A DNA stretch of 64,000 nucleotides from Butyrivibrio sp. (GCA_015056575.1 SVGA01000015.1:1370-65369); one strand, 5' to 3'; positions 15,852-32,179 are shown, numbered from the stretch's first letter. Notes: a model not told the origin generated them from the letters alone. Made by a program: numbers and translations.

Positions 15852-17564
15852 TCAGCCGTTTATCGTGAACTGTCCGATGAGGTTGTTCAGACTCTCGGAC
15901 TGCTCGGAGAGTTCCTGGGATACTGCGCTGGACTCCTCAGCAGTTGCGGAGTTACTTTGAACAACGCTTGAGATCATCTCGATTCCCTTGTCGATCTCGT
16001 CCATACTTCTGGCCTGCTGCTCAGCCAGGTCTCCGGTCTCGATTATCATCTCCGTGATCTCTTCTACGCTGTGCTGCATTGCGTCAAGAGCCTCGGTGGT
16101 CTCTGCCACTACGGAGTTACCGTTGCTGATCTCATCCATGGTGTCGGCGATGAGCTGGTGTGTATTCTTGGCTGCTTCGCTGGACTGGTCTGCCAGCTTT
16201 CCGATCTGATCTGCAACAACCGCAAAGCCTTTCCCTGTCTCGCCTGCTCTTGCTGCCTCAATGGAAGCATTAAGGGCAAGGAGTGATGTCTGCTTGGCGA
16301 TGGCTTCGATGGAGTTGGTTACCTGCTCGATCTCTGCGGAGGCCTCAGTGATCCTTGTCATCGCATCGGTCACAAGATGCATTTTACGGGCACTGGTCTC
16401 TGCATTGTCGCGAACAGCAGTTGCCATATCCTTACTTCTTTCCGCAACCTCAGCCAGCTGCTTGGTCTGTTCTGTTATGGAATTTACGGAGGCTGTCAGT
16501 TCTTCCACTGCAGCAGCCTGATCCGTAGCGCCCTCTGCCAGGTTTGTTGCTCCCTGAGACATGTTGCTTGCCCCCTGGGATACCTGGGATGAGGAATTCT
16601 TAACCTCAAGCAGAGTGCTTGACAGATTCTCCGAGATATCGCTAAGGGCACTTCTTATTGCCTGATAATCTCCGATATAGAGCTTCTCGTTATGGGATCC
16701 CGAAGAGAAATCTCCTGAGGACATTCTCTTAAGAGTCTCATCGATATCCCTTACGATATTGCCGATAGCGTCCGTTGAAAGAGATATATCTTTTGCCAGC
16801 TTACCAAGCTCATCCTCGGAGTCTGTGTCGATCTCAAGTTCAAGTTTTCCTTTGGCCATGTCGTCCGCTGCTTTGGATATGGCTTCGATAGGTCCAAGGA
16901 TACTGCCGGTAAGGGCTCCTCTTGCTTTCTTTGAATAAAGCAGTGCATATACAACCACAAGCCCGGCAATTATTGTCATCAGCGAAACGGTTACCAAAGA
17001 TAAGTAATAAGCCCTTTTGGCCTGTGCCGCCGCACTGATGCCTATCTCCTTAAAGTCCTTAACAACAACCTTTATAGCCTCATTTACATTTGCCACATAG
17101 TACTGATACTGCTCATCGTGGGAAGCTCCGGAAGAATACAGTGAATCCATTCCCGCTGCGGCAGACTGAATGTCTTTGATATGCTGATAGGCCGTGGAGA
17201 GGTCTCCGTCATATACCTTACCCAGGTTATCAAGGCCCTCGTTAAGCTCTGCGATCTTCTCCGCAGCGCCCGCCATCTGCTCCGTCCTGTCGGCATCATC
17301 CTCACAGTTGAGAGCCCACAGATAGTATTTGGCCAGAGCCTGGATGGTTATCCTGATCTCTCCCTGCTGGGTGTTCTGCTCATAGTATCTGGTGTAGATA
17401 AAGTGGATATTTCCTACTGCCACCAGATCTATCAGGATGATAACAACAAAGATCACTATCAGATTCAGCCTGAACCTGTTGAAGACCTTCTTAAACTTAT
17501 CCGCTACCGAAAGTTTCCTAAAAGCTTCCTGATTGAATTCACTATTTCCTGCTGTTTTGGCCAT
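15852..17564 (-). CDS. methyl-accepting chemotaxis protein
   Basis: Conserved signalling hairpin [30 protein letters not shown], an N-terminal TM, sensor, second TM and HAMP. The start was moved to ATG 17564 (GGGAGG SD). Confidence 0.92.
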   Translation of the reverse strand: MAKTAGNSEFNQEAFRKLSVADKFKKVFNRFRLNLIVIFVVIILIDLVAVGNIHFIYTRYYEQNTQQGEIRITIQALAKYYLWALNCEDDADRTEQMAGAAEKIAELNEGLDNLGKVYDGDLSTAYQHIKDIQSAAAGMDSLYSSGASHDEQYQYYVANVNEAIKVVVKDFKEIGISAAAQAKRAYYLSLVTVSLMTIIAGLVVVYALLYSKKARGALTGSILGPIEAISKAADDMAKGKLELEIDTDSEDELGKLAKDISLSTDAIGNIVRDIDETLKRMSSGDFSSGSHNEKLYIGDYQAIRSALSDISENLSSTLLEVKNSSSQVSQGASNMSQGATNLAEGATDQAAAVEELTASVNSITEQTKQLAEVAERSKDMATAVRDNAETSARKMHLVTDAMTRITEASAEIEQVTNSIEAIAKQTSLLALNASIEAARAGETGKGFAVVADQIGKLADQSSEAAKNTHQLIADTMDEISNGNSVVAETTEALDAMQHSVEEITEMIIETGDLAEQQARSMDEIDKGIEMISSVVQSNSATAEESSAVSQELSEQSESLNNLIGQFTING

Positions 17565-17831
17565 AATAACCTCCCGGGATATTGACAACAAACAACTTGT
17601 ATATTTAATTGTAAACGATTTTTAGTACACAAAATCATAAAATTATATAAATTAAAATAAAATTTCAGAAAATTTGCCAAATTCAGACTTCTCCGAGCTT
17701 TGTAGGTTATTTCAGACGTTTGATCCTGACACAAAAAAAGTTTTACTTATGCCCGATTCTGCGATATATTACTATAGGTGGCAAATGGATTGTCACCTAA
17801 TAATTGTTCACTGTTATATGAGGAGGAATTT

Positions 17832-19127
17832 ATGGTAAAGGCTGTTGTAGGCGCTAACTGGGGTGACGAAGGAAAAGGCAAGATCACCGATACCCTTGCG
17901 GATCAGGCTGATGTGGTAATCCGTTTTCAGGGCGGGGCCAATGCCGGTCACACTATTGTAAACGATTATGGCAAGTTCGCACTTCACACTATGCCATCAG
18001 GTGTTTTCCATCAAAATATAATGAACATCATCGGAAACGGTGTTGCATTCGATATAACCAAATTCATGAACGAACTTAAGGAAATTGAGGAAAAGGGAGT
18101 TCCCACACCTCAGATCATGATCTCCGACAGAGTTCAGGTAATGATGCCCTATCACGTTCTTTTCGATACCCTTGAGGAGGCAAGACTGGCAGGCAAGTCC
18201 TTCGGTTCCACCAAGTCAGGTATCGCCCCCTTCTATTCAGACAAGTTCGCCAAGATCGGCTGGCAGATCAACGAGTTCTTCCAGGACGATGAGGCCATCA
18301 AAGAGAAGATTGCCCGTATAGCCGAGATCAAGGACGTTATCCTTGTAAATCTCTACCACGCAGATCCTATTGATCAGGAAGCTCTTTTCAATCAGATCAT
18401 TGAATGGAGAGAACAGGTTAAAGACTACATTGGCAACGTTTCACTGTATCTTGACGGTGCCATCAAAGAAGGTAAGACCATTCTTCTTGAGGGTCAGCTT
18501 GGAACCATGAAGGATCCTGACCACGGAATCTATCCCATGGTCACATCTTCCTCTCCTTTGGCAGCTTACGGTGCCATCGGTGCCGGTATTCCTCCCTATG
18601 AGATCAAGCAGATCGTTACCGTATCCAAGGCTTATTCCTCTGCAGTAGGCGCAGGTGCATTTGTTTCAGAGCTCTTCGGAGATGAAGCTGAGGAACTCAG
18701 ACGCCGCGGCGGAGACGGCGGTGAATACGGCGCAACCACAGGAAGACCCAGACGTGTTGGCTGGTATGACTGTGTGGCCAGCAAGTACGGCTGCAGACTC
18801 CAGGGTACCACAGATGTGGCATTCACTGTTCTCGATGTTCTTGGCTACCTTGATGAGATCCCGGTTTGTGTAGGATATGACATTGACGGCCGGGTTACAA
18901 CAGAGTTCCCCGTAACCCATCTTCTTGATAAGGCCAGACCCGTATACAAGACTCTTCCCGGATGGAAATGCGAGATCCGTGGCATAAAGAACTACGAAGA
19001 TCTTCCCGAGAACTGCAGAAATTACATTGAGTTCATCGAAGAGCAGATAGGATATCCAATTACAATGGTCAGCAACGGCCCTGCAAGAACCGATATCATC
19101 TACAGAAAGAGCAAGCTCAGTAAATAA
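17832..19127 (+). CDS. purA: adenylosuccinate synthase
   Basis: Motifs GANWGDEGKGK, GGANAGHT and ATTGRPRRVGW. ATG 17832 has a GAGGAGG SD. Confidence 0.93.
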   Translation: MVKAVVGANWGDEGKGKITDTLADQADVVIRFQGGANAGHTIVNDYGKFALHTMPSGVFHQNIMNIIGNGVAFDITKFMNELKEIEEKGVPTPQIMISDRVQVMMPYHVLFDTLEEARLAGKSFGSTKSGIAPFYSDKFAKIGWQINEFFQDDEAIKEKIARIAEIKDVILVNLYHADPIDQEALFNQIIEWREQVKDYIGNVSLYLDGAIKEGKTILLEGQLGTMKDPDHGIYPMVTSSSPLAAYGAIGAGIPPYEIKQIVTVSKAYSSAVGAGAFVSELFGDEAEELRRRGGDGGEYGATTGRPRRVGWYDCVASKYGCRLQGTTDVAFTVLDVLGYLDEIPVCVGYDIDGRVTTEFPVTHLLDKARPVYKTLPGWKCEIRGIKNYEDLPENCRNYIEFIEEQIGYPITMVSNGPARTDIIYRKSKLSK

Positions 19128-19135
19128 GGTTTTAT

Positions 19136-19172
19136 AAGCGGAGGTCCAAAGGGCTTCCGCTTTTTGTTTTTT
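19136..19172 (+). terminator. Intrinsic terminator after purA
   Basis: AAGCGGA-loop-TCCGCTT followed by TTTGTTTTTT. Confidence 0.7.
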
Positions 19173-19187
19173 AAGAAAGGATATGTT

Positions 19188-19607
19188 ATGACAAACCAGA
19201 ATAACCCGGAAGAAAAGTACGCACACCTTATAAAGGCCTTCCTTAACATGATGGTAACAGGCCAGGTGAGCGTCAACTTCCTTAATGCCGGTAAGCTCAA
19301 AAGAGAAATGGCATCTTCCATCGAAGCATTCAAGGGAGAGGACCTTGAGGGGTTTGCAAATTTCTTTGTGGATTCCAGCCTCCACTCTTCCGCCTACCGC
19401 ACAACTTTTTTTGGCACCGTACCTATGAGCGACGGCGGCGCAGCCACCAAGCTTGCGGAGGATATCGATGAGATCACAGGCAAGATTGCCGGAAGATTCG
19501 GTCTGGCGGATGAAGCCCGTCCTCTTCGCACAGCTCTTTTTAAGGCCTACATCGATCAGGTGAAGGACGGCCACAGAATTCTTGAGGAGCTAAATATAAC
19601 GCTATGA
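19188..19607 (+). CDS. hypothetical protein (139 aa), translationally coupled to the GTPase-NYN gene
   Basis: ATG 19188 has an AAAGGA SD. Its stop overlaps the next start (ATGA at 19604). I recognise no motif. Confidence 0.65.
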   Translation: MTNQNNPEEKYAHLIKAFLNMMVTGQVSVNFLNAGKLKREMASSIEAFKGEDLEGFANFFVDSSLHSSAYRTTFFGTVPMSDGGAATKLAEDIDEITGKIAGRFGLADEARPLRTALFKAYIDQVKDGHRILEELNITL

Positions 19608-22306
19608 ACAAGCACCTGACTCTGGGCATCCTTGCCCACGTTGATGCCGGCAAGACCACTCTCTCCGAGGGCCTTCTCTACCTTTCCGGCACCATAAGAA
19701 ACATAGGAAGGGTCGACCATAAGGACACCTTTCTTGATACCTATGAACTTGAAAAAGCCCGCGGGATCACTATTTTTTCCAAGCAGGCTCTCTTTGAATA
19801 CGATGACACTGCCTTCACTCTTCTTGATACCCCGGGCCACACGGATTTTTCACCGGAGATGGAGCGCACCCTTCAGGTCCTGGATATGGCGGTTCTTCTT
19901 ATCAGCGCCCCCGATGGCGTCACCAGCCAGGTGAAGCTTTTGTGGAAGCTCCTTGACCACTACAAGGTTCCCGTGATGATCTTTGTAAACAAAATGGACC
20001 AGGTGGAGGATTCTCCGGAACATTCAAAGGATCTGATCCTTAAGGCCCTTAAGGAGAACCTCTCAAGCCACGTTGTCTCTTTTGACCGGGAGTTTGAAAG
20101 CGGCGAATTTCAGGAAGAACTGGCGGTATGCAACGACGAACTTTTGGAGAGCTATCTTGAGGGAAAAGAAATATCGAAGGAAACCGCAAGAAAACTCATA
20201 AAGAACCGGGAGTGCTTCCCATGTCTTTTCGGGTCCGCCCTTAAGATGGAGGGTGTAAAGGAACTCCTTGATACAATATCCGAATATTCCGAAGGCTACA
20301 GGGAAGACCAAAACGAAAGCTTCGGCGGCAGAGTGTTTAAGATAAGCCGAGACGCAAACGGAACCCGGTTAACTCATCTCAAGATAACTTCAGGTTCCAT
20401 TAAGATAAGGGACGTGGTACAGGATGAGAAGATAGACCAGATACGTCTCTACTCCGGAGATAAGTTCACTCCCGTTCAGGAAGCTACAGCCGGCATGATC
20501 TGCGCTGTCACCGGACTTTCCGGCACAAAGGCCGGTGAAGGCCTGGGTGTTCTTAAGGGAAGCACCGTCAGCGAAGTTCTGCAGCCAATACTCTCTTCCA
20601 CCCTGATATTACCGGAGGAAGCGGATATCACCGTTGTTTTCCGCCAGCTTCAGTTCCTTCAGGAAGAGGAGCCGATGCTCCTTGTTTCCAAAAATGAAAT
20701 CACCGGTGAGCTGGAAGTCCAGGTCATGGGTGAAGTCCAGAAAGAGATCCTAAAGCACCTGATAAAGAGCCGCTTTGGTCTGGATGTCAAATTCGGCCCC
20801 GGCCGCATTGTATATAAGGAAACTATCGCTTCTCCCGCCGAGGGCGTCGGGCACTACGAGCCCCTTCGCCACTATGCAGAGGTTCATCTTCTTTTGGAGC
20901 CTGCAGAGCCCGGAAGCGGAATAACCGTAGCCACGGATTGCAGCACCGATGAGCTTGCTCTCAACTGGCAGAGGCTCATAATGACCCATGTCACGGAAAA
21001 GAAGCATCTGGGAGTCCTTACCGGTTCTGAGATAACAGATATAAAGATCACTCTCCTTACAGGAAGAGCCCATGAAAAGCACACCGAGGGCGGAGATTTC
21101 AGACAGGCCACCTATCGCGCCATCAGGCAGGGCCTTATGATGGCCGACAGTGTTCTTTTGGAGCCAATGTACGACCTTAGAATAGAAGCCCCTCAGGAGT
21201 TTGTAGGAAGGGCTCTTACTGATCTTCAGAGGATGAACGGCAGAGTCGATCCGCCGGAAATTGAAGGCAATAAATCCGTGATCACGGGATCCGTTCCCGC
21301 AGCCTGCCTTGGAGACTATGCAGTGGAACTGTCAGGCTACACCCACGGGGAAGGAAAGCTCTTTGTGACCCTAAGCGGCTATGCCCCCTGCCACAACAGC
21401 GAGGAAGTCATCGAGAGCATCGGCTACGATCCCACTCTTGACATTGCAAATTCCCCCGATTCCGTATTCTGCTCCCACGGCGCAGGAACCGTGATTCCCT
21501 GGGACAGGGTTCGCGAGCACATGCATGTGGATTCCGGATGGGATGCAAAGACAGGTACCATTGTAACCGACCTTACGGATAACATCGACATGGAGGCTCT
21601 TAAGGAGCTTCAAAACAGACTAAAGCGCAGGAAGGAACCGGAGCGCTCCTTCGCGGATGTGGAGCGTGATCTTCGGATGACGGAAAACGAGCTAAAGGAC
21701 ATCTTCGAACGCACCTACGGAACCATAAAGCCCAGATATGTAGCAGCCCCCGAAACCTTCGACAGCTCTTTTGCCGAAGAAAAGGAGGCTAAAAGAGACC
21801 TTGCCGTTGAGCAGGAGAAGCGGGAAAAGTATGCAAACACCGGGTCTGTGGCCAAGACTGATGCCATGAAGGAATATCTTCTGGTGGACGGCTACAATGT
21901 CATCTATGCGTCAAAAGAGCTCTCGGATCTGGCCGCAAGAGACCTAAAGGCCGCCAGAGATTCCCTTATCGACACTCTGTGCAACTTCCAGGGATTCCGA
22001 AAAGAGACCGTGATCCTGGTATTCGATGCCTATAGGGTTCAAGGCGGAAAAGAACATCTGGATAATATTAATGGCCTGTCGGTTATTTATACAAGAGAAG
22101 CGGAAACTGCAGACCAGTATATTGAGAAGGCAGCGCACGAAATGTCCAAAAAGTATAAGGTTACCGTTGCCACCTCCGATGCCATAGAGCAGGTGATCGT
22201 GCTAAGCAGCGGTGCCTTAAGACTCTCCGCAAGAGATCTGTGGGATGAGATCAGGCGGACAGATGAACTGATACGTGAGAAAATTAGCCAGAATAAGCTA
22301 AAATAA
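19604..22306 (+). CDS. EF-G/Tet(M)-like translational GTPase fused to a C-terminal YacP/Rae1-type NYN domain
   Basis: G1 AHVDAGKT, G3 DTPGH, G4 NKMD, and an EF-G-like body to about aa 650. The C terminus reads LLVDGYNVIY..VFDAYRV..EAETADQYIEK..VATSDAIEQ..GALRLSARDL, which matches YacP/Rae1 motifs. Confidence 0.85.
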   Translation: MNKHLTLGILAHVDAGKTTLSEGLLYLSGTIRNIGRVDHKDTFLDTYELEKARGITIFSKQALFEYDDTAFTLLDTPGHTDFSPEMERTLQVLDMAVLLISAPDGVTSQVKLLWKLLDHYKVPVMIFVNKMDQVEDSPEHSKDLILKALKENLSSHVVSFDREFESGEFQEELAVCNDELLESYLEGKEISKETARKLIKNRECFPCLFGSALKMEGVKELLDTISEYSEGYREDQNESFGGRVFKISRDANGTRLTHLKITSGSIKIRDVVQDEKIDQIRLYSGDKFTPVQEATAGMICAVTGLSGTKAGEGLGVLKGSTVSEVLQPILSSTLILPEEADITVVFRQLQFLQEEEPMLLVSKNEITGELEVQVMGEVQKEILKHLIKSRFGLDVKFGPGRIVYKETIASPAEGVGHYEPLRHYAEVHLLLEPAEPGSGITVATDCSTDELALNWQRLIMTHVTEKKHLGVLTGSEITDIKITLLTGRAHEKHTEGGDFRQATYRAIRQGLMMADSVLLEPMYDLRIEAPQEFVGRALTDLQRMNGRVDPPEIEGNKSVITGSVPAACLGDYAVELSGYTHGEGKLFVTLSGYAPCHNSEEVIESIGYDPTLDIANSPDSVFCSHGAGTVIPWDRVREHMHVDSGWDAKTGTIVTDLTDNIDMEALKELQNRLKRRKEPERSFADVERDLRMTENELKDIFERTYGTIKPRYVAAPETFDSSFAEEKEAKRDLAVEQEKREKYANTGSVAKTDAMKEYLLVDGYNVIYASKELSDLAARDLKAARDSLIDTLCNFQGFRKETVILVFDAYRVQGGKEHLDNINGLSVIYTREAETADQYIEKAAHEMSKKYKVTVATSDAIEQVIVLSSGALRLSARDLWDEIRRTDELIREKISQNKLK

Positions 22307-22415: not shown

Positions 22416-24182
22416 ATGAAGCAAAAAAACAATGGTTTTAAAGCTCCCCTGGGGCTCCTGCTCATCGGAGTTTCCGGAGTGCTGGTACTTGCACTTATCA
22501 TCAGCATCTTCATCAACAGCAATAAGATGAAGCAGATAGAACAAAACAGCACTAAGTTGTATTATGACATGCTGTACACCATCAGCTCCACCCTTATCAA
22601 TGCGGACAGAGACTTCTATCAGGCACAATCTGCTGCTCTTCATCTAAATGCATATGGGCAGTATATGGCCCCTGATCAGATACAGGCACAGGTTGATGAC
22701 TACAAAGAAAACTGTCAGCAGGCCTATGACAGGGTCGTGGAGGCAGCTGCTCTGGCTCAGACCAATACAGATCTGTACACAGAACATACTACTTCTGACG
22801 GAAGAAACTTCTCGCAGGTTTATCCGGCTTTCGAAGCCCAGTTCAAAAAATGGCAGTCTCTTTACAATATTGAAACCAATGAAGGTGACATTCAGACCTT
22901 CGATATGGAATTTTCCACAACCAGAGACTACATCAGTGACATGACCGATATCGTTGAAGACTGGGCCGCCCACGAAAGAATCGAGGATGAAGCCGCTACC
23001 AGCAGAAGCATTATGATAAACATCATCATCTTTATCCTTGTCGCCGTAATTCTCCTTGTTGTTACCGTCTTCATCATCATGGCCATCAACAAAACCCTTA
23101 AGAAGATGAGCTCTGATGTTCAGAGAATATCGGAAGGCGACTTTGTTACCAAGATCACAACCGACAGCTTTATCATAGAATTCGCAAGTATTCTGGAAGC
23201 CCTTGAGTCCATGAGGCATCAGCTTCGAAATGCTCTCGTTAAGGTTATCGATCACGCCGATAGCGTTAATACCAAGGCCGAGCTTGCTAAGGACAGTATC
23301 TCAAGCTCTCAGAAGACCACTACAGATATCAGCTCAGCGGTTAACGATCTGGCAACAGGTGCAACAGCTATGGCTGAAGACGTTCAGAGCACTTCTTCCA
23401 TCACCGTTAACATGGGGTCTTCTGTAGACAACGTTCTTGATTCGGCAAACTCCAATCTGGCGAGAGGCCGTCAGGTTTACGAGGAATCCACAAGAGTAAA
23501 GGAACAGCTCGAGCAGATCAAGCTTCAGGATCAGAAGAATGACGAGATGGCTACTCAGGTTTCAGACTCCGTAAATGAAACCGCAAATGTAGTTGCACAG
23601 ATCACCACAGCAGCTGAGTCCATCATCTCCATTGCAAGCCAGACCAACCTCCTTGCTCTCAATGCTTCCATCGAGGCTGCCAGGGCAGGTGAAGCCGGTA
23701 AAGGATTTGCGGTTGTTGCAGATAACATCAAGGATCTTGCAGGTGATACCAACTCTCTTGCAGGTGAGATCACCAACATGCTTTCAACCATCACGGATTA
23801 CTCCAACAAGAATAAAGAGCTTACAGAGGCCATCAAGGGTGCCATCACCAATGAGACCACTGCTCTTGAGGAGATGAGTGAATCCTTTGATCAGATGCTT
23901 ACACTCCTTCAGGAGACTGAGGAAGGCAACAAGCAGATCGTTGAACTGGTAGAGACCATGAACGCCGACAAGGAGAACATCTTAAATTCCGTAGAGTCCC
24001 TTTCAAGCATCTCGGAGGAGAACGCAGCTTCTACTCAGGAAACCAGTGCTTCTCTCATGCAGCTTGATACAAATATGGAATCCGTTGTTGAGCAGGCTCA
24101 GGATCTTCAGAAGATTGCGGAAGAACTTACAGCTAACGTTAAGTACTTCAAGGTTGAGCTTCCTCCTGACGGACAGCAGTGA
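22416..24182 (+). CDS. methyl-accepting chemotaxis protein
   Basis: [30 protein letters not shown], with two TM helices flanking a ~170-aa sensor region. Confidence 0.92.
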
Positions 24183-30136: not shown

Positions 30137-32179
30137 TCAAATCTTGAAATCTCTTACGAAGTCTTCAATAGTGGCTGCGGAGCCGGATACTGTTGTGGCG
30201 CTTTCGTCCACACCACGGCTCTCATCGGCAACCTGCTGTGCACTGATGGCCAGGTTATCCGTAGTAGCGGTAACTTCCTCGGTACTTGCGGACTGCTCCT
30301 GGGAAATAGCTGCCACAGATGTTGCGATGGTATCTACGTTTCCGATCTTGTCGATCATCTGATTTACTGTATCGCTGGTCTCATCAAGACTTGAGAAGAT
30401 CTCTTCGAAGGTCTTTCCGGCTGTCTCTACAGCCTCTGAGCTTGCATTGATCTCTTCCATGTTGGCCTCGGACTTCTCCGACAGGGACTTGATCTGGGCT
30501 GTGATCTCAGTGATGATCTTACCGATCTCGGTGGTGGACTCTGCCGAGTTTGCAGCCAGCTGTCCGATCTCCTGAGCAACAACCGCGAAGCCCTTACCTG
30601 CCTCTCCTGCTCTTGCAGCCTCGATGGAAGCATTAAGTGAGAGCAGATTGGTCTGGGATGCGATGGAATTGATGATCTCTATGATGGAGTTGATCTTCTG
30701 TGCTGACTCTCCCACTGCCTGGACGTCCATATTCATGTCGCTCATGGAAGCGGATATCTTGCTCATGCCCTGCTGAACGATCTCCATATCTCTCTGACCA
30801 TCTTTGGCCTTGCCTACCAGGTTGTTAACGGTATTGCTGGCTTCCTGTCCATGTTCCATAAGGTCTGACACCTCTGTGGCAAGCTCAGTAGCATTGTTGG
30901 CAAGTTCGGATACGGCACTGGCCATTCCGTTCATGGCATCTCTGATCTGCCCCATGTTGGTGGACTGCTCTGTTGCCTGAATATTCAGTTTGCCCGAAGC
31001 ATCCTTACTGTTTTCAGCCTCAGTTGCCAGCCTGCCTGTCTCATTCTTGATGTTACCGAGAGTCCCTCTCATGTGCTCGACGAAGACACTCATATTATTG
31101 TTCATAAGGCCGATCTCATCGTTGCCGCCCTTAGGAATATCCACCGTAAAGTCTCCATCGGTGATCTTTGTGATATTCTGTGTAAGCTTCGAAACAGGAT
31201 CCGATACGATCCTCTTCACCAACAGATACAGAACTGCGGAAATAATAATGATCATAACGATCATAAGCCCGATACAGATGACCTGGAATGATGAAAGCCC
31301 CGCCAAAACGTCCTTCTTGGATACTGAACAGATAAGTGTCCAATCAGTCCCGGGAATAGCTCTTGCAGATACGTAGTACACCAGCCCGTTTTCTGACTTG
31401 ATCTCAGTCACATCAGTCGAACCCGTCTTTGCAAATGCGTAAGCAGAATTAAGGAACTGTGCTTCGGGGTGATCCCCAACCTTAGTTCCGTTAAATTCAG
31501 GCTTGAAATATGAAAGGATAATGTCATTGGCAAGAAGCATTGCTCCGCCGGTCTTAACAGGCTTGATCTCGCCGATCTCAGCCACAATACCATCCAGAGT
31601 ATAATCGGCTGAAGCCACACCGCTTCTTGCGTCCGCAAGTTTAACGGTTCTGGTAAAAGAAACAACCATGCTGCCTGTATCGCTGTCTATATAAGGTTCT
31701 CCCGGAAGGAAGGTATCGTGCTCAAGCCCCTCCAGATACCAGGATCTCTCGGTTGCTACATAATCAGGATCCGGAACCCATCCCGATGGGTCGATCCAGT
31801 CACCGTTTGAAGTAGCCAGATACATACCGTTGGGAAGATACTCATTCTTGCTAAGGGTAGGTGCCAGAAAGCTTGCCATGGCATTGTCATTGGGAAAAGA
31901 AACAGCTCCAAGGGCATCAGCTGCGGCATCAAAATACTCTATAAGATTGGTTATCTCTCGCCCAATCTTCTGCGAGTAGTAATCGGATTCCTTGTCCAGG
32001 TTGTTGATGGCAAGTTCTGTGATAATGTTCTTGGCCTGAGTAGCCACTATAGCCATGATAATGATGATGGACGCAGCTATCATTGGTATAACTACTTTGA
32101 GCAGTTTCCCGCTAACACTCTTTGCCCCCTTAACCTTGCTATTCTTTTTTTCTTTTACTTCTTCAGCCATAAACTTCAT
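30137..32179 (-). CDS. methyl-accepting chemotaxis protein with extracellular Cache-like sensor and HAMP
   Basis: [30 protein letters not shown], with a ~270-aa periplasmic region between two TM helices. Confidence 0.92.

Follow-up and report, generated by a model that had tools for sequence, protein, structure and literature searches.

A Tet-like translational GTPase fused to a Rae1-type nuclease in Butyrivibrio, a candidate ribosome-targeted mRNA endonuclease

Proteins in which a translational GTPase resembling the tetracycline ribosomal protection proteins Tet(M) and Tet(O) is joined to an NYN_YacP nuclease domain have been reported before. Additional file 8 of Atkinson 2015 contains such proteins from Butyrivibrio proteoclasticus B316 (YP_003830115.1) and Ruminococcus albus 7 (YP_004106010.1). 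The fusion was also noted by Matelska et al. 2017, who called its role unclear and observed that some of the genes sit with genes of helix-turn-helix (HTH) proteins (PMC5499597). These two reports cover ten species, and the ideas they put forward, cleavage of ribosomal RNA (rRNA) or antibiotic resistance, predate the role since found for the nuclease Rae1. Here we describe a fusion gene of 900 codons in a 64,000-nucleotide (nt) stretch of Butyrivibrio sp. DNA (GCA_015056575.1 SVGA01000015.1:1370-65369), which we analysed at its full length and refer to as the window. The window gene is another ortholog of the published family and differs from it in nothing essential. An original prediction, made from the sequence of the window, had implied that the architecture was novel; having been published in 2015 and 2017, it is not. 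What is new in comparison to Atkinson 2015 and Matelska 2017 is the presence of the family in at least 595 species instead of ten, plus an unfused relative.

The nuclease half resembles Rae1 (YacP) of Bacillus subtilis. Rae1 is a single-domain protein of about 170 amino acids (aa) that finds ribosomes alone and only transiently, and its gene ends the gltX-cysS-mrnC-yacO(rlmB)-yacP operon (PMC5499597). Cleavage by Rae1 depends on translation and falls 12 nt upstream of the codon that is stalled in the A site (PMC12407103). The original prediction had relied on the premise that Rae1 cuts mRNA from the A site; this premise was withdrawn by its own authors, who place Rae1 at the ribosome's tail end rather than at the A site as first proposed (PMC12407103). 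Collided ribosomes are passed to transfer-messenger RNA (tmRNA) by Rae1, which is emerging as the Gram-positive counterpart of SmrB for the rescue of collided ribosomes (PMC13622287). How Rae1 finds ribosomes is unexplained, and a ribosome-bound structure is lacking because the binding is transient (PMC13622287). SmrB of Escherichia coli and Cue2 and NONU-1 of eukaryotes have the same proposed job, the cutting of mRNA at stalled or collided ribosomes for rescue, and MutS2 of B. subtilis is a non-cleaving collision sensor of the small MutS-related (SMR) type. These proteins, however, have unrelated SMR folds, read the collision interface directly and work without a translational GTPase, which makes them functional analogs of the fusion only. 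The fusion is mentioned neither in the 2025 Rae1 paper nor in the 2026 Rae1 preprint.

The fusion gene and its domains

The fusion gene (19604..22306, + strand, stop codon included) encodes 900 aa according to open reading frame (ORF) translation and Pfam. Its start codon (ATG, 19604-19606) overlaps the stop codon (TGA, 19605-19607) of a preceding 139-aa ORF, so that the two share the letters ATGA. Both ORFs, the shorter one running over 19188..19607 when counted from its ATG, and their overlap are as originally predicted. The identical 900-aa protein was found on seven contigs, and the four places listed correspond to four different samples. Its closest named relatives are Butyrivibrio sp. 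metagenome-assembled genomes (MAGs), which assigns the window to a rumen Butyrivibrio, and the protein shares 64% identity over 99% of the length with a member from B. proteoclasticus (P0062). All domains are present in more than 100 close homologs. In an alignment of the window protein with the top 150 representatives from an exhaustive search, 145 of the 151 sequences (41-60% identical) are fused, and all residue conservation below is counted over 145 diverse fused representatives, down to about 41% identity.

Species genomes were searched for the family with two specific domain IV motifs, GH[FY]EPL[RK]HY and GGDFR[QE]A[TAS]xR. Both motifs matched in at least 595 species (Lachnospiraceae, Oscillospiraceae and relatives), and our locus comparisons rest on the best 80 species loci of these. 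Among the best loci, Lachnospiraceae are represented by Butyrivibrio, Blautia, Dorea, Acetatifactor and Herbinix, and Oscillospiraceae/Ruminococcaceae by Faecalibacterium, Flavonifractor, Intestinimonas, Anaerotruncus, Dysosmobacter and Ruminococcus; Acutalibacteraceae are also included. The NYN domain is fused in 80 out of 80 species loci with a complete gene, and we conclude that the fusion is obligatory within the clade.

We also considered that a sequencing error might have merged separate GTPase and yacP genes during assembly or annotation, given that the window derives from a metagenome-type assembly and that Ligilactobacillus salivarius has an unfused GTPase homolog (see below). The chance of this is negligible. 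The ORF is identical on the seven contigs from at least those four samples, more than 100 close homologs and 145 of the 151 aligned sequences are fused, the complete gene is fused in every one of the 80 loci with isolate genomes among them, and the fused proteins in Additional file 8 of Atkinson 2015 come from complete genomes. An artefact is thereby refuted, and the single, unsplit ORF on which the original prediction had made itself depend is confirmed. In one Ruminococcus MAG, the fusion gene is present as two abutting ORFs of 230 aa and 720 aa (locus L077, 4088-7380); this split is a frameshift or a sequencing error.

Profile hidden Markov model searches, which had been named as a check of the prediction, matched GTP_EFTU, EF-G_D2, EFG_III, EFG_IV, EFG_C and NYN_YacP, the first five of them over aa 3-599. 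The predicted canonical GTPase start and EF-G-like body were thus recovered. The G domain (aa 3-228; 19610..20287, as all following domains on the + strand) matched GTP_EFTU with E 1.5e-51 and contains the motifs G1 (AHVDAGKT), G3 (DTPGH) and G4 (NKMD). Domains II and III (aa 240-398; 20321..20797) were assigned by EF-G_D2 (aa 240-314) and EFG_III (aa 328-398) and were modelled confidently by AlphaFold2 (AF2). Domain IV (aa 400-514; 20801..21145) was identified by EFG_IV, by motif conservation and by alignments with Tet(O), Tet(M) and EF-G. Two decoding-centre motifs in it are specific to the family, GHYEPLRHYAEV (aa 416-427) and HEKHTEGGDFRQATYRAIRQGL (aa 490-511). Domain V (aa 517-599; 21152..21400) matched EFG_C with E 2.2e-18. 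The GTPase residues are kept throughout the family, with the P-loop lysine K17 in 145/145, the switch-II histidine H79 of DTPGH in 144/145 and D132 of NKxD in 145/145 representatives. Foldseek comparison of the AF2 model returned EF-G/EF-2 structures, the top ones being EF-G (E 5e-52). The protein therefore has what defines a translational GTPase of the EF2 family, namely G1-G4, the switch-II histidine, domains II-V and an EF-G-like fold, and by homology the EF-G/Tet-like body is predicted to be an active translational GTPase.

Over the full length, the best solved relatives are Tet(O) and Tet(M) (275 and 254 bits), with EF-G at about 240 bits. The Tet alignment is one stretch covering aa 4-596 with the G' region included, the five-domain layout is common to both, and the 900-aa protein is about 32% identical to Tet(O). 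The best NCBIfam model, tet_protect (NF012153), gave 431.5 bits and stays below its curated cut-off of 775. The same holds for the TetM/W/O/S model NF033148 (295.8 bits, cut-off 1100), for NF012155 (246 bits, cut-off 1420) and for the EF-G models TIGR00484 (290.8 bits, cut-off 659.4) and NF009381 (319 bits, cut-off 583). When domain IV was searched alone, its best match was EF-G and not Tet. Further likeness to EF-G lies in the overall fold, the intact G motifs and the tip histidine of domain IV, H490, which aligns with H573 of Thermus thermophilus EF-G.

The loops of domain IV are unlike those of either factor. Loop 3 reads GRAHEKHTEGGDF in the window protein and is aligned opposite GLYYSPVSTPADF of Tet(O)/Tet(M); this replacement is nearly invariant across the fusion family, and the Tet YSPVS motif is missing. 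In TetM and TetO, the loop-3 residues Y-Y-S-P-V-S are said to reach the tetracycline site. Loop 1, the invariant GHYEPLRHY, is four residues shorter than the EF-G loop and lacks GGRGQ. Tetracycline is dislodged by the domain IV loops of Tet proteins (Atkinson 2015). In comparison to Tet(M)/Tet(O), the fusion adds a mini-domain, a tether and a nuclease, and it is chromosomal, apparently vertically inherited and located off mobile elements. In comparison to EF-G, it falls short of the curated cut-offs, has the shortened loop 1 and occurs in a host that already possesses EF-G and EFGII. B. proteoclasticus B316 also encodes LepA, RF3 and TypA besides these two (Atkinson 2015, Additional file 2); the fusion is therefore an additional factor and, given EF-G and EFGII, not the translocase of the cell. 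We conclude that the GTPase body appears to be a third kind of EF2-family factor, neither a Tet protein nor a translocase look-alike. Within the family the domain IV loops do not vary, and they are unlike those of EF-G and of Tet, which would argue for a specific A-site read-out.

Domain V is followed by a family-specific C-terminal mini-domain (aa 596-641; 21389..21526) with the signature PCHN...SVFCSHGAG..PW..V..HM, delimited by AF2 and conservation and modelled as a helix, a beta-hairpin and a second helix. C596 is conserved in 127, H597 in 88, C623 in 125, H625 in 106 and W633 in 129 of the 145 representatives, and the Cys/His cluster (C596, H597, C623, H625; 61-88% conserved) could be a metal site.

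An unfused homolog of 644 aa is encoded on megaplasmids of L. salivarius (WP_049770576.1; pHN3, NC_017499.1; locus L091, 4983-6917). It is annotated as a Tet family protein and is 47% identical over aa 3-648. While it shares all family signatures, including the mini-domain (PCHN...SVFCAHGAG...W...MH), it stops eight residues past the mini-domain, and the tether and the NYN domain are missing. No NYN gene was found within 5 kb of the unfused gene. The same end point is seen in P0262 and P0270, two short sequences among the representatives of the exhaustive search. Since the unfused homologs end right after the mini-domain, the GTPase body and the mini-domain constitute an evolutionary unit of their own, and the tether and the nuclease appear as an addition within the large clostridial clade.

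Divergent to the unfused L. salivarius gene lie a paralog of rpsN (S14) devoid of Cys residues and a gene for a 'putative metal homeostasis protein' (L091, 4400-4796), and the intergenic region beside the unfused gene contains a Zur-box-like palindrome, AAATAGTAATTATTACTTTTT. A link of the family to zinc was considered and retained only as a side remark, since the Cys and His residues of the mini-domain are only conserved to the extent given above and there is no recurrence of metal genes around the fusion.

The tether (aa 642-757; 21527..21874) was delimited by AF2 confidence, composition and family alignment. It is rich in E, K and R, with 22 K/R and 27 D/E among its 116 residues (42% charged), and these 49 charged residues together with the low model confidence bear out the highly charged linker of the original prediction. 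The AF2 model shows two low-confidence helices (aa 663-705) and then about 50 disordered residues before the NYN domain, with a predicted local distance difference test (pLDDT) score below 50 at aa 704-735 and 742-754. One tether motif, E696-L-x-x-I-F-x-R-T-Y-G706 (21689-21721), is conserved in the family, in which the length of the tether ranges from 29 to 192 aa with a median of 87. Because it is disordered in the model and varies in length, we regard the tether as a leash and not as a rigid connector.

The C-terminal domain (aa 758-898; 21875..22297) is of the NYN_YacP/Rae1 endoribonuclease type, as judged from Pfam and from the structures 5MQ8/5MQ9. Pfam NYN_YacP matched aa 759-898 with E 1.2e-46 and 159.2 bits against a gathering score of 24.6. 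The sequence of the B. subtilis YacP/Rae1 structures was matched motif for motif with E 2.3e-24, and identity to B. subtilis Rae1 is 44.5% (tblastn). The likeness extends to the fold, to LLVDGYN, VFDA, ETAD..IEK and VATSD..EQ, and to the catalytic residues. The acidic residues are kept almost without exception (D762 in 143/145, D808 in 144/145, D837 in 143/145, D859 in 145/145), and D762 and D837 align with D7 and D81 of Rae1, of which the D7N D81N double mutant is catalytically dead (PMC10351889). The YacP/Rae1 assignment made in the original prediction thus proved sound, and by homology we expect the domain to be an active Rae1-type NYN endoribonuclease. As the catalytic residues of both the GTPase and the NYN domain are nearly invariant, both activities are under purifying selection. 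The fusion nuclease probably shares the chemistry of Rae1 and, with mRNA on stalled ribosomes, also its kind of substrate. It differs from Rae1 in forming the C-terminus of a 900-aa GTPase instead of a single-domain protein, and its gene has purA, a DUF6553 gene and a methyl-accepting chemotaxis protein (MCP) gene as neighbors instead of the gltX operon.

Proposed action on the ribosome

We propose that the fusion is a GTPase-delivered, Rae1-type mRNA endonuclease that serves as a stand-alone ribosome quality-control factor, a proposal to which we attach slightly better than even credence. With the domain call correct and both active sites intact and conserved, a ribosome-targeted nuclease appears to be the most reasonable reading of the protein, and in this respect the original prediction is upheld by the conserved GTPase and NYN sites.

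Factors of the EF2 family bind the GTPase-associated centre and place domain IV in the 30S A site. Judging from EF-G and Tet(M), the body of the fusion would dock at the ribosomal factor site, where the G domain and domain V would contact the GTPase-associated centre. Domain IV would enter the 30S decoding centre with its tip, and the body would select the state of the ribosome. Through the flexible tether (median about 87 residues), binding of the factor would concentrate the nuclease locally on one class of ribosomes, and the nuclease would cut mRNA on or next to the bound ribosome, like Rae1 at ribosomes that have stalled or collided. Rescue by tmRNA would presumably take up the truncated message as its substrate, while GTP hydrolysis would release the factor and so limit the dwell time of the nuclease.

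The geometry that we prefer, and infer from these considerations, has the factor on the trailing one of two collided ribosomes or on a stalled ribosome with an accessible factor site. From there, the nuclease could reach the mRNA entry channel, which lies close to the factor site, and cleavage would occur on the entry side. In a disome, the entry channel of the trailing ribosome would face the segment about 12 nt upstream of the codon in the lead ribosome's A site, and a segment at this distance is the mapped place of Rae1 cleavage (PMC12407103).

Several points weigh against delivery of an mRNA endonuclease by the GTPase. Judging by sequence alone, the RNA target could also be rRNA or transfer RNA (tRNA). 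Standalone Rae1 needs no GTPase, and the fusion is thus not mechanistically required. The unfused GTPase of L. salivarius implies that the body has a function of its own, perhaps without a nuclease, and the shortest tethers of the family (29 aa) restrict the reach of the nuclease. In the literature searched, Leroy 2017 and Condon 2018 aside, no functional study of the fusion was found. A related reading takes the GTPase body and the mini-domain as an uncharacterised subfamily that recognises stalled or collided ribosomes, which Clostridia fused to the nuclease and which in its unfused form, as in L. salivarius, would act in trans with a standalone Rae1; we consider this unlikely. About 1 Mb of locus sequence (loci, not whole genomes) contained no second NYN copy.

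The DUF6553 gene and the genomic surroundings

The 139-aa gene upstream of the fusion (19188..19607, + strand) is supported by Pfam, homologs and an AF2 model. No motif had been recognised in it in the original prediction, but it matches DUF6553 (E 1.3e-12), a Pfam family without known function. Gene callers extend the gene to a TTG at 19164 (147 aa), and a Shine-Dalgarno (SD)-like AAAGGA is located at 19176-19181. A word-limited search found at least seven homologs with 58-82% identity, most of them with the same start Met. The AF2 model is an all-alpha bundle (pLDDT 87.7) for which the PDB offered no similar fold (best E 0.5), and the protein had no match in PADLOC or PHROG.

Further fusions, 66-74% identical to the window protein, likewise have a DUF6553 gene upstream. 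In two of these pairs the 4-nt overlap is present too, and one of the two lacks purA upstream and has a promoter-like TTTAGA-17-TATAAT; in another locus (L009), the DUF6553 gene lies 121 nt upstream of the fusion. No DUF6553 gene was found in the other 79 of the 80 species loci. In B. proteoclasticus, the slot is occupied by an unrelated 306-aa winged-helix protein whose gene abuts the GTPase start (L005, 5080-6000; L010, 3826-4746). This protein has an N-terminal winged HTH (HTH_24/HTH_5/MarR) with weak PADLOC matches to HTHs of the Csa3/CasR type and an uncharacterised C-terminal part of 230 aa. We rejected the idea that DUF6553 corresponds to its C-terminal half, as BLASTP gave no similarity (E 0.71).

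Because the pairing is specific to a sub-clade of Butyrivibrio, the DUF6553 protein cannot belong to the core mechanism. The nearest SD-like sequence of the fusion gene, GAGGAG at 19584-19589, is 14 nt from the ATG, which makes translational coupling plausible, and we therefore regard the DUF6553 protein as a plausible Butyrivibrio-specific, translationally coupled accessory. It had originally been proposed as a stoichiometric partner of the GTPase. As a feature of the whole family, such a partner is contradicted by the restriction to the Butyrivibrio sub-clade and by the unrelated winged-HTH protein in B. proteoclasticus.

Upstream of the pair lies purA, encoding an adenylosuccinate synthetase of 431 aa (17832..19127, + strand; ORF, and Pfam Adenylsucc_synt on the identical contig). 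A hairpin scan detected a terminator-like structure directly 3' of purA (19136..19172, + strand), comprising a hairpin at 19136-19162 with 12 pairs (7 G-C), a loop of 3 and the tail TTTGTTTTTT, and a T-run to 19172. As the DUF6553 gene starts with the ATG at 19188, the originally reported spacing of 16 nt holds. A relative (L089) has an equivalent hairpin in the same place and the same layout. A promoter scan predicted no sigma-70-like promoter between purA and the pair, and a TATAAG that was considered as a candidate in this region was rejected by eye for lack of a usable -35 element. According to Rfam, neither purA nor the pair is preceded by a riboswitch or other regulatory RNA. Terminator read-through is a plausible expression route for the pair, with purA as a possible source of the transcription, and an unrecognised promoter would be the alternative.

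When the neighboring ORFs of the 80 species loci were clustered, no conserved operon partner emerged. The most frequent neighbor family is present in 11 of the 80 loci, on mixed strands and at mixed distances, and ten tightly coupled upstream genes are mutually unrelated (EamA, SBP, MatE, LacI, CbiC, NrtR, CorA and others). As examples of context, the window has purA and MCP genes, Blautia has dus and greA, and MT835514 has rsmH and gltX; gltX, rsmH, dus or greA are not recurrent near the fusion in the species loci. No mobile-element genes lie within 6 kb of the fusion in the window, and no signatures of defence islands or mobile elements were seen around the fusion loci. The chromosomal location in variable housekeeping contexts, the lack of a conserved partner and the occurrence in at least 595 species fit an autonomous housekeeping factor.

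The GTPase body matches phrog_6880 with 456 bits. Two 'Bacteriophage sp.' scaffolds carry the fusion (MT835514.1 and MT835563.1), and the other phage matches are ordinary Tet(O)/Tet(W). Besides the fusion gene, gltX, a RelQ-type synthetase and a glycerol kinase, MT835514.1 (L092, 20.5 kb, 'UNVERIFIED: Bacteriophage sp.') carries genes for an AddA-like helicase, a CspB protease, FeoB and a ZIP transporter, as well as rsmH. A phage origin of the fusion was rejected on the basis of this one of the two scaffolds, since its gene content is that of a bacterial chromosome fragment.

Three MCP genes of the window are located within 16 kb (15852-17591, - strand; 22416-24182, + strand; 30137-32179, - strand). 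Two of them flank the block of purA, the DUF6553 gene and the fusion gene, and the downstream one is syntenic in several Butyrivibrio relatives. Just downstream of the MCP gene at 30137..32179 (- strand) are two tandem Clostridiales-1 RNAs (Rfam RF01699; 29839-30137, - strand; 115.7 and 62.7 bits).

Competing functions and significance of the family

Other functions of the fusion have to be weighed against this background. The body might position the NYN domain on rRNA, either for late maturation or proof-reading or for inactivating or degrading damaged or surplus ribosomes, an explanation that we find unlikely. A eukaryotic parallel is the PIN nuclease Nob1, which acts in 80S-like particles with eIF5B, and a factor in the decoding centre is a neighbor of h44, the 3' region of 16S rRNA and H69. 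Just upstream of the fusion in one locus is rsmH, the gene of a 16S methyltransferase. The gltX-cysS-mrnC-yacO-yacP context had led to an initial prediction that NYN domains of the YacP type act in rRNA/tRNA maturation (PMC5499597), and rRNA cleavage is listed as a hypothesis by Atkinson 2015. However, Rae1 is the only characterised enzyme of the YacP family and cleaves mRNA, not rRNA, and the NYN domain of the window shares the catalytic residues of Rae1 at the 44.5% identity reported above. Ribosome-biogenesis genes, moreover, are not among conserved neighbors.

Tetracycline ribosomal protection with an accessory RNase domain, a new mode of resistance raised as a possibility by Atkinson 2015 and Matelska 2017, is a most improbable function, although Tet(O)/Tet(M) are the best full-length solved matches (275 and 254 bits), tet_protect is the best NCBIfam model and relatives carry Tet annotations. 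Scores of 431.5 against 775 (tet_protect) and 296 against 1100 (M/W/O/S) stay below the curated cut-offs, GRAHEKHTEGGDF replaces GLYYSPVSTPADF so that the protein lacks the residues to which displacement of the drug is ascribed, domain IV alone is closest to EF-G and Tet(O) identity reaches only about 32%. Inheritance across the at least 595 species looks vertical and chromosomal, and the 6 kb around the window gene are free of mobile genes. The fusion is thus very probably not a tetracycline-resistance protein. We likewise regard it as very unlikely that the pair forms a toxin or abortive-infection module, in which a growth-arresting nuclease-GTPase would be restrained by DUF6553 as antitoxin or inhibitor. 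The ATGA overlap does suggest coupled, near-stoichiometric synthesis, the pairing exists in several Butyrivibrio species, once without purA upstream, the DUF6553 protein evolves faster than the fusion, and the lack of an obvious strong promoter would fit low expression of a dangerous enzyme. But PADLOC gave nothing above noise for either protein (sole match MkoB, E 0.0017), and most members are without a coupled small gene, DUF6553 being absent from the 79 other species loci and replaced by the unrelated winged-HTH protein in B. proteoclasticus. The contexts are single-copy and housekeeping, not defence islands or mobile elements, and the DUF6553 model resembles no known antitoxin in fold (best E 0.5). 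A role in abortive infection or defence, which the original prediction had entertained, thus found no backing in PADLOC or in the context, and the 'phage' scaffold MT835514 is bacterial chromosome.

In public records, members of the family are named 'TetM/TetW/TetO/TetS family ribosomal protection protein' or 'tetM from Tn916'; a member from uncultured Blautia sp. (P0377; L087, 6001-8757) is one that carries a Tet annotation. As the members score below the curated Tet cut-offs and do not have the Tet loop, they are a likely cause of false positives when resistomes are surveyed.

Three aspects give the finding its value: this systematic misannotation as tetracycline resistance, the breadth of the family in gut Clostridia and its testability through the new Rae1 biology. 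If the GTPase body and the mini-domain are indeed a subfamily that recognises stalled or collided ribosomes, the fusion would be a 'Rosetta stone' for the recruitment of Rae1-type nucleases to ribosomes, and a form locked with 5'-guanylyl imidodiphosphate (GDPNP) could allow such a nuclease to be seen in action in a structure for the first time. A natural fusion to a factor-site GTPase, which a D762N/D837N mutant and non-hydrolysable GTP should in principle make it possible to trap, would offer a direct route to how Rae1 finds ribosomes. Hundreds of Clostridia of the gut and rumen possess the family, among them Faecalibacterium, Blautia, Dorea, Agathobacter, Ruminococcus and Butyrivibrio, and the function of the family would therefore be part of core translation control in dominant commensals.

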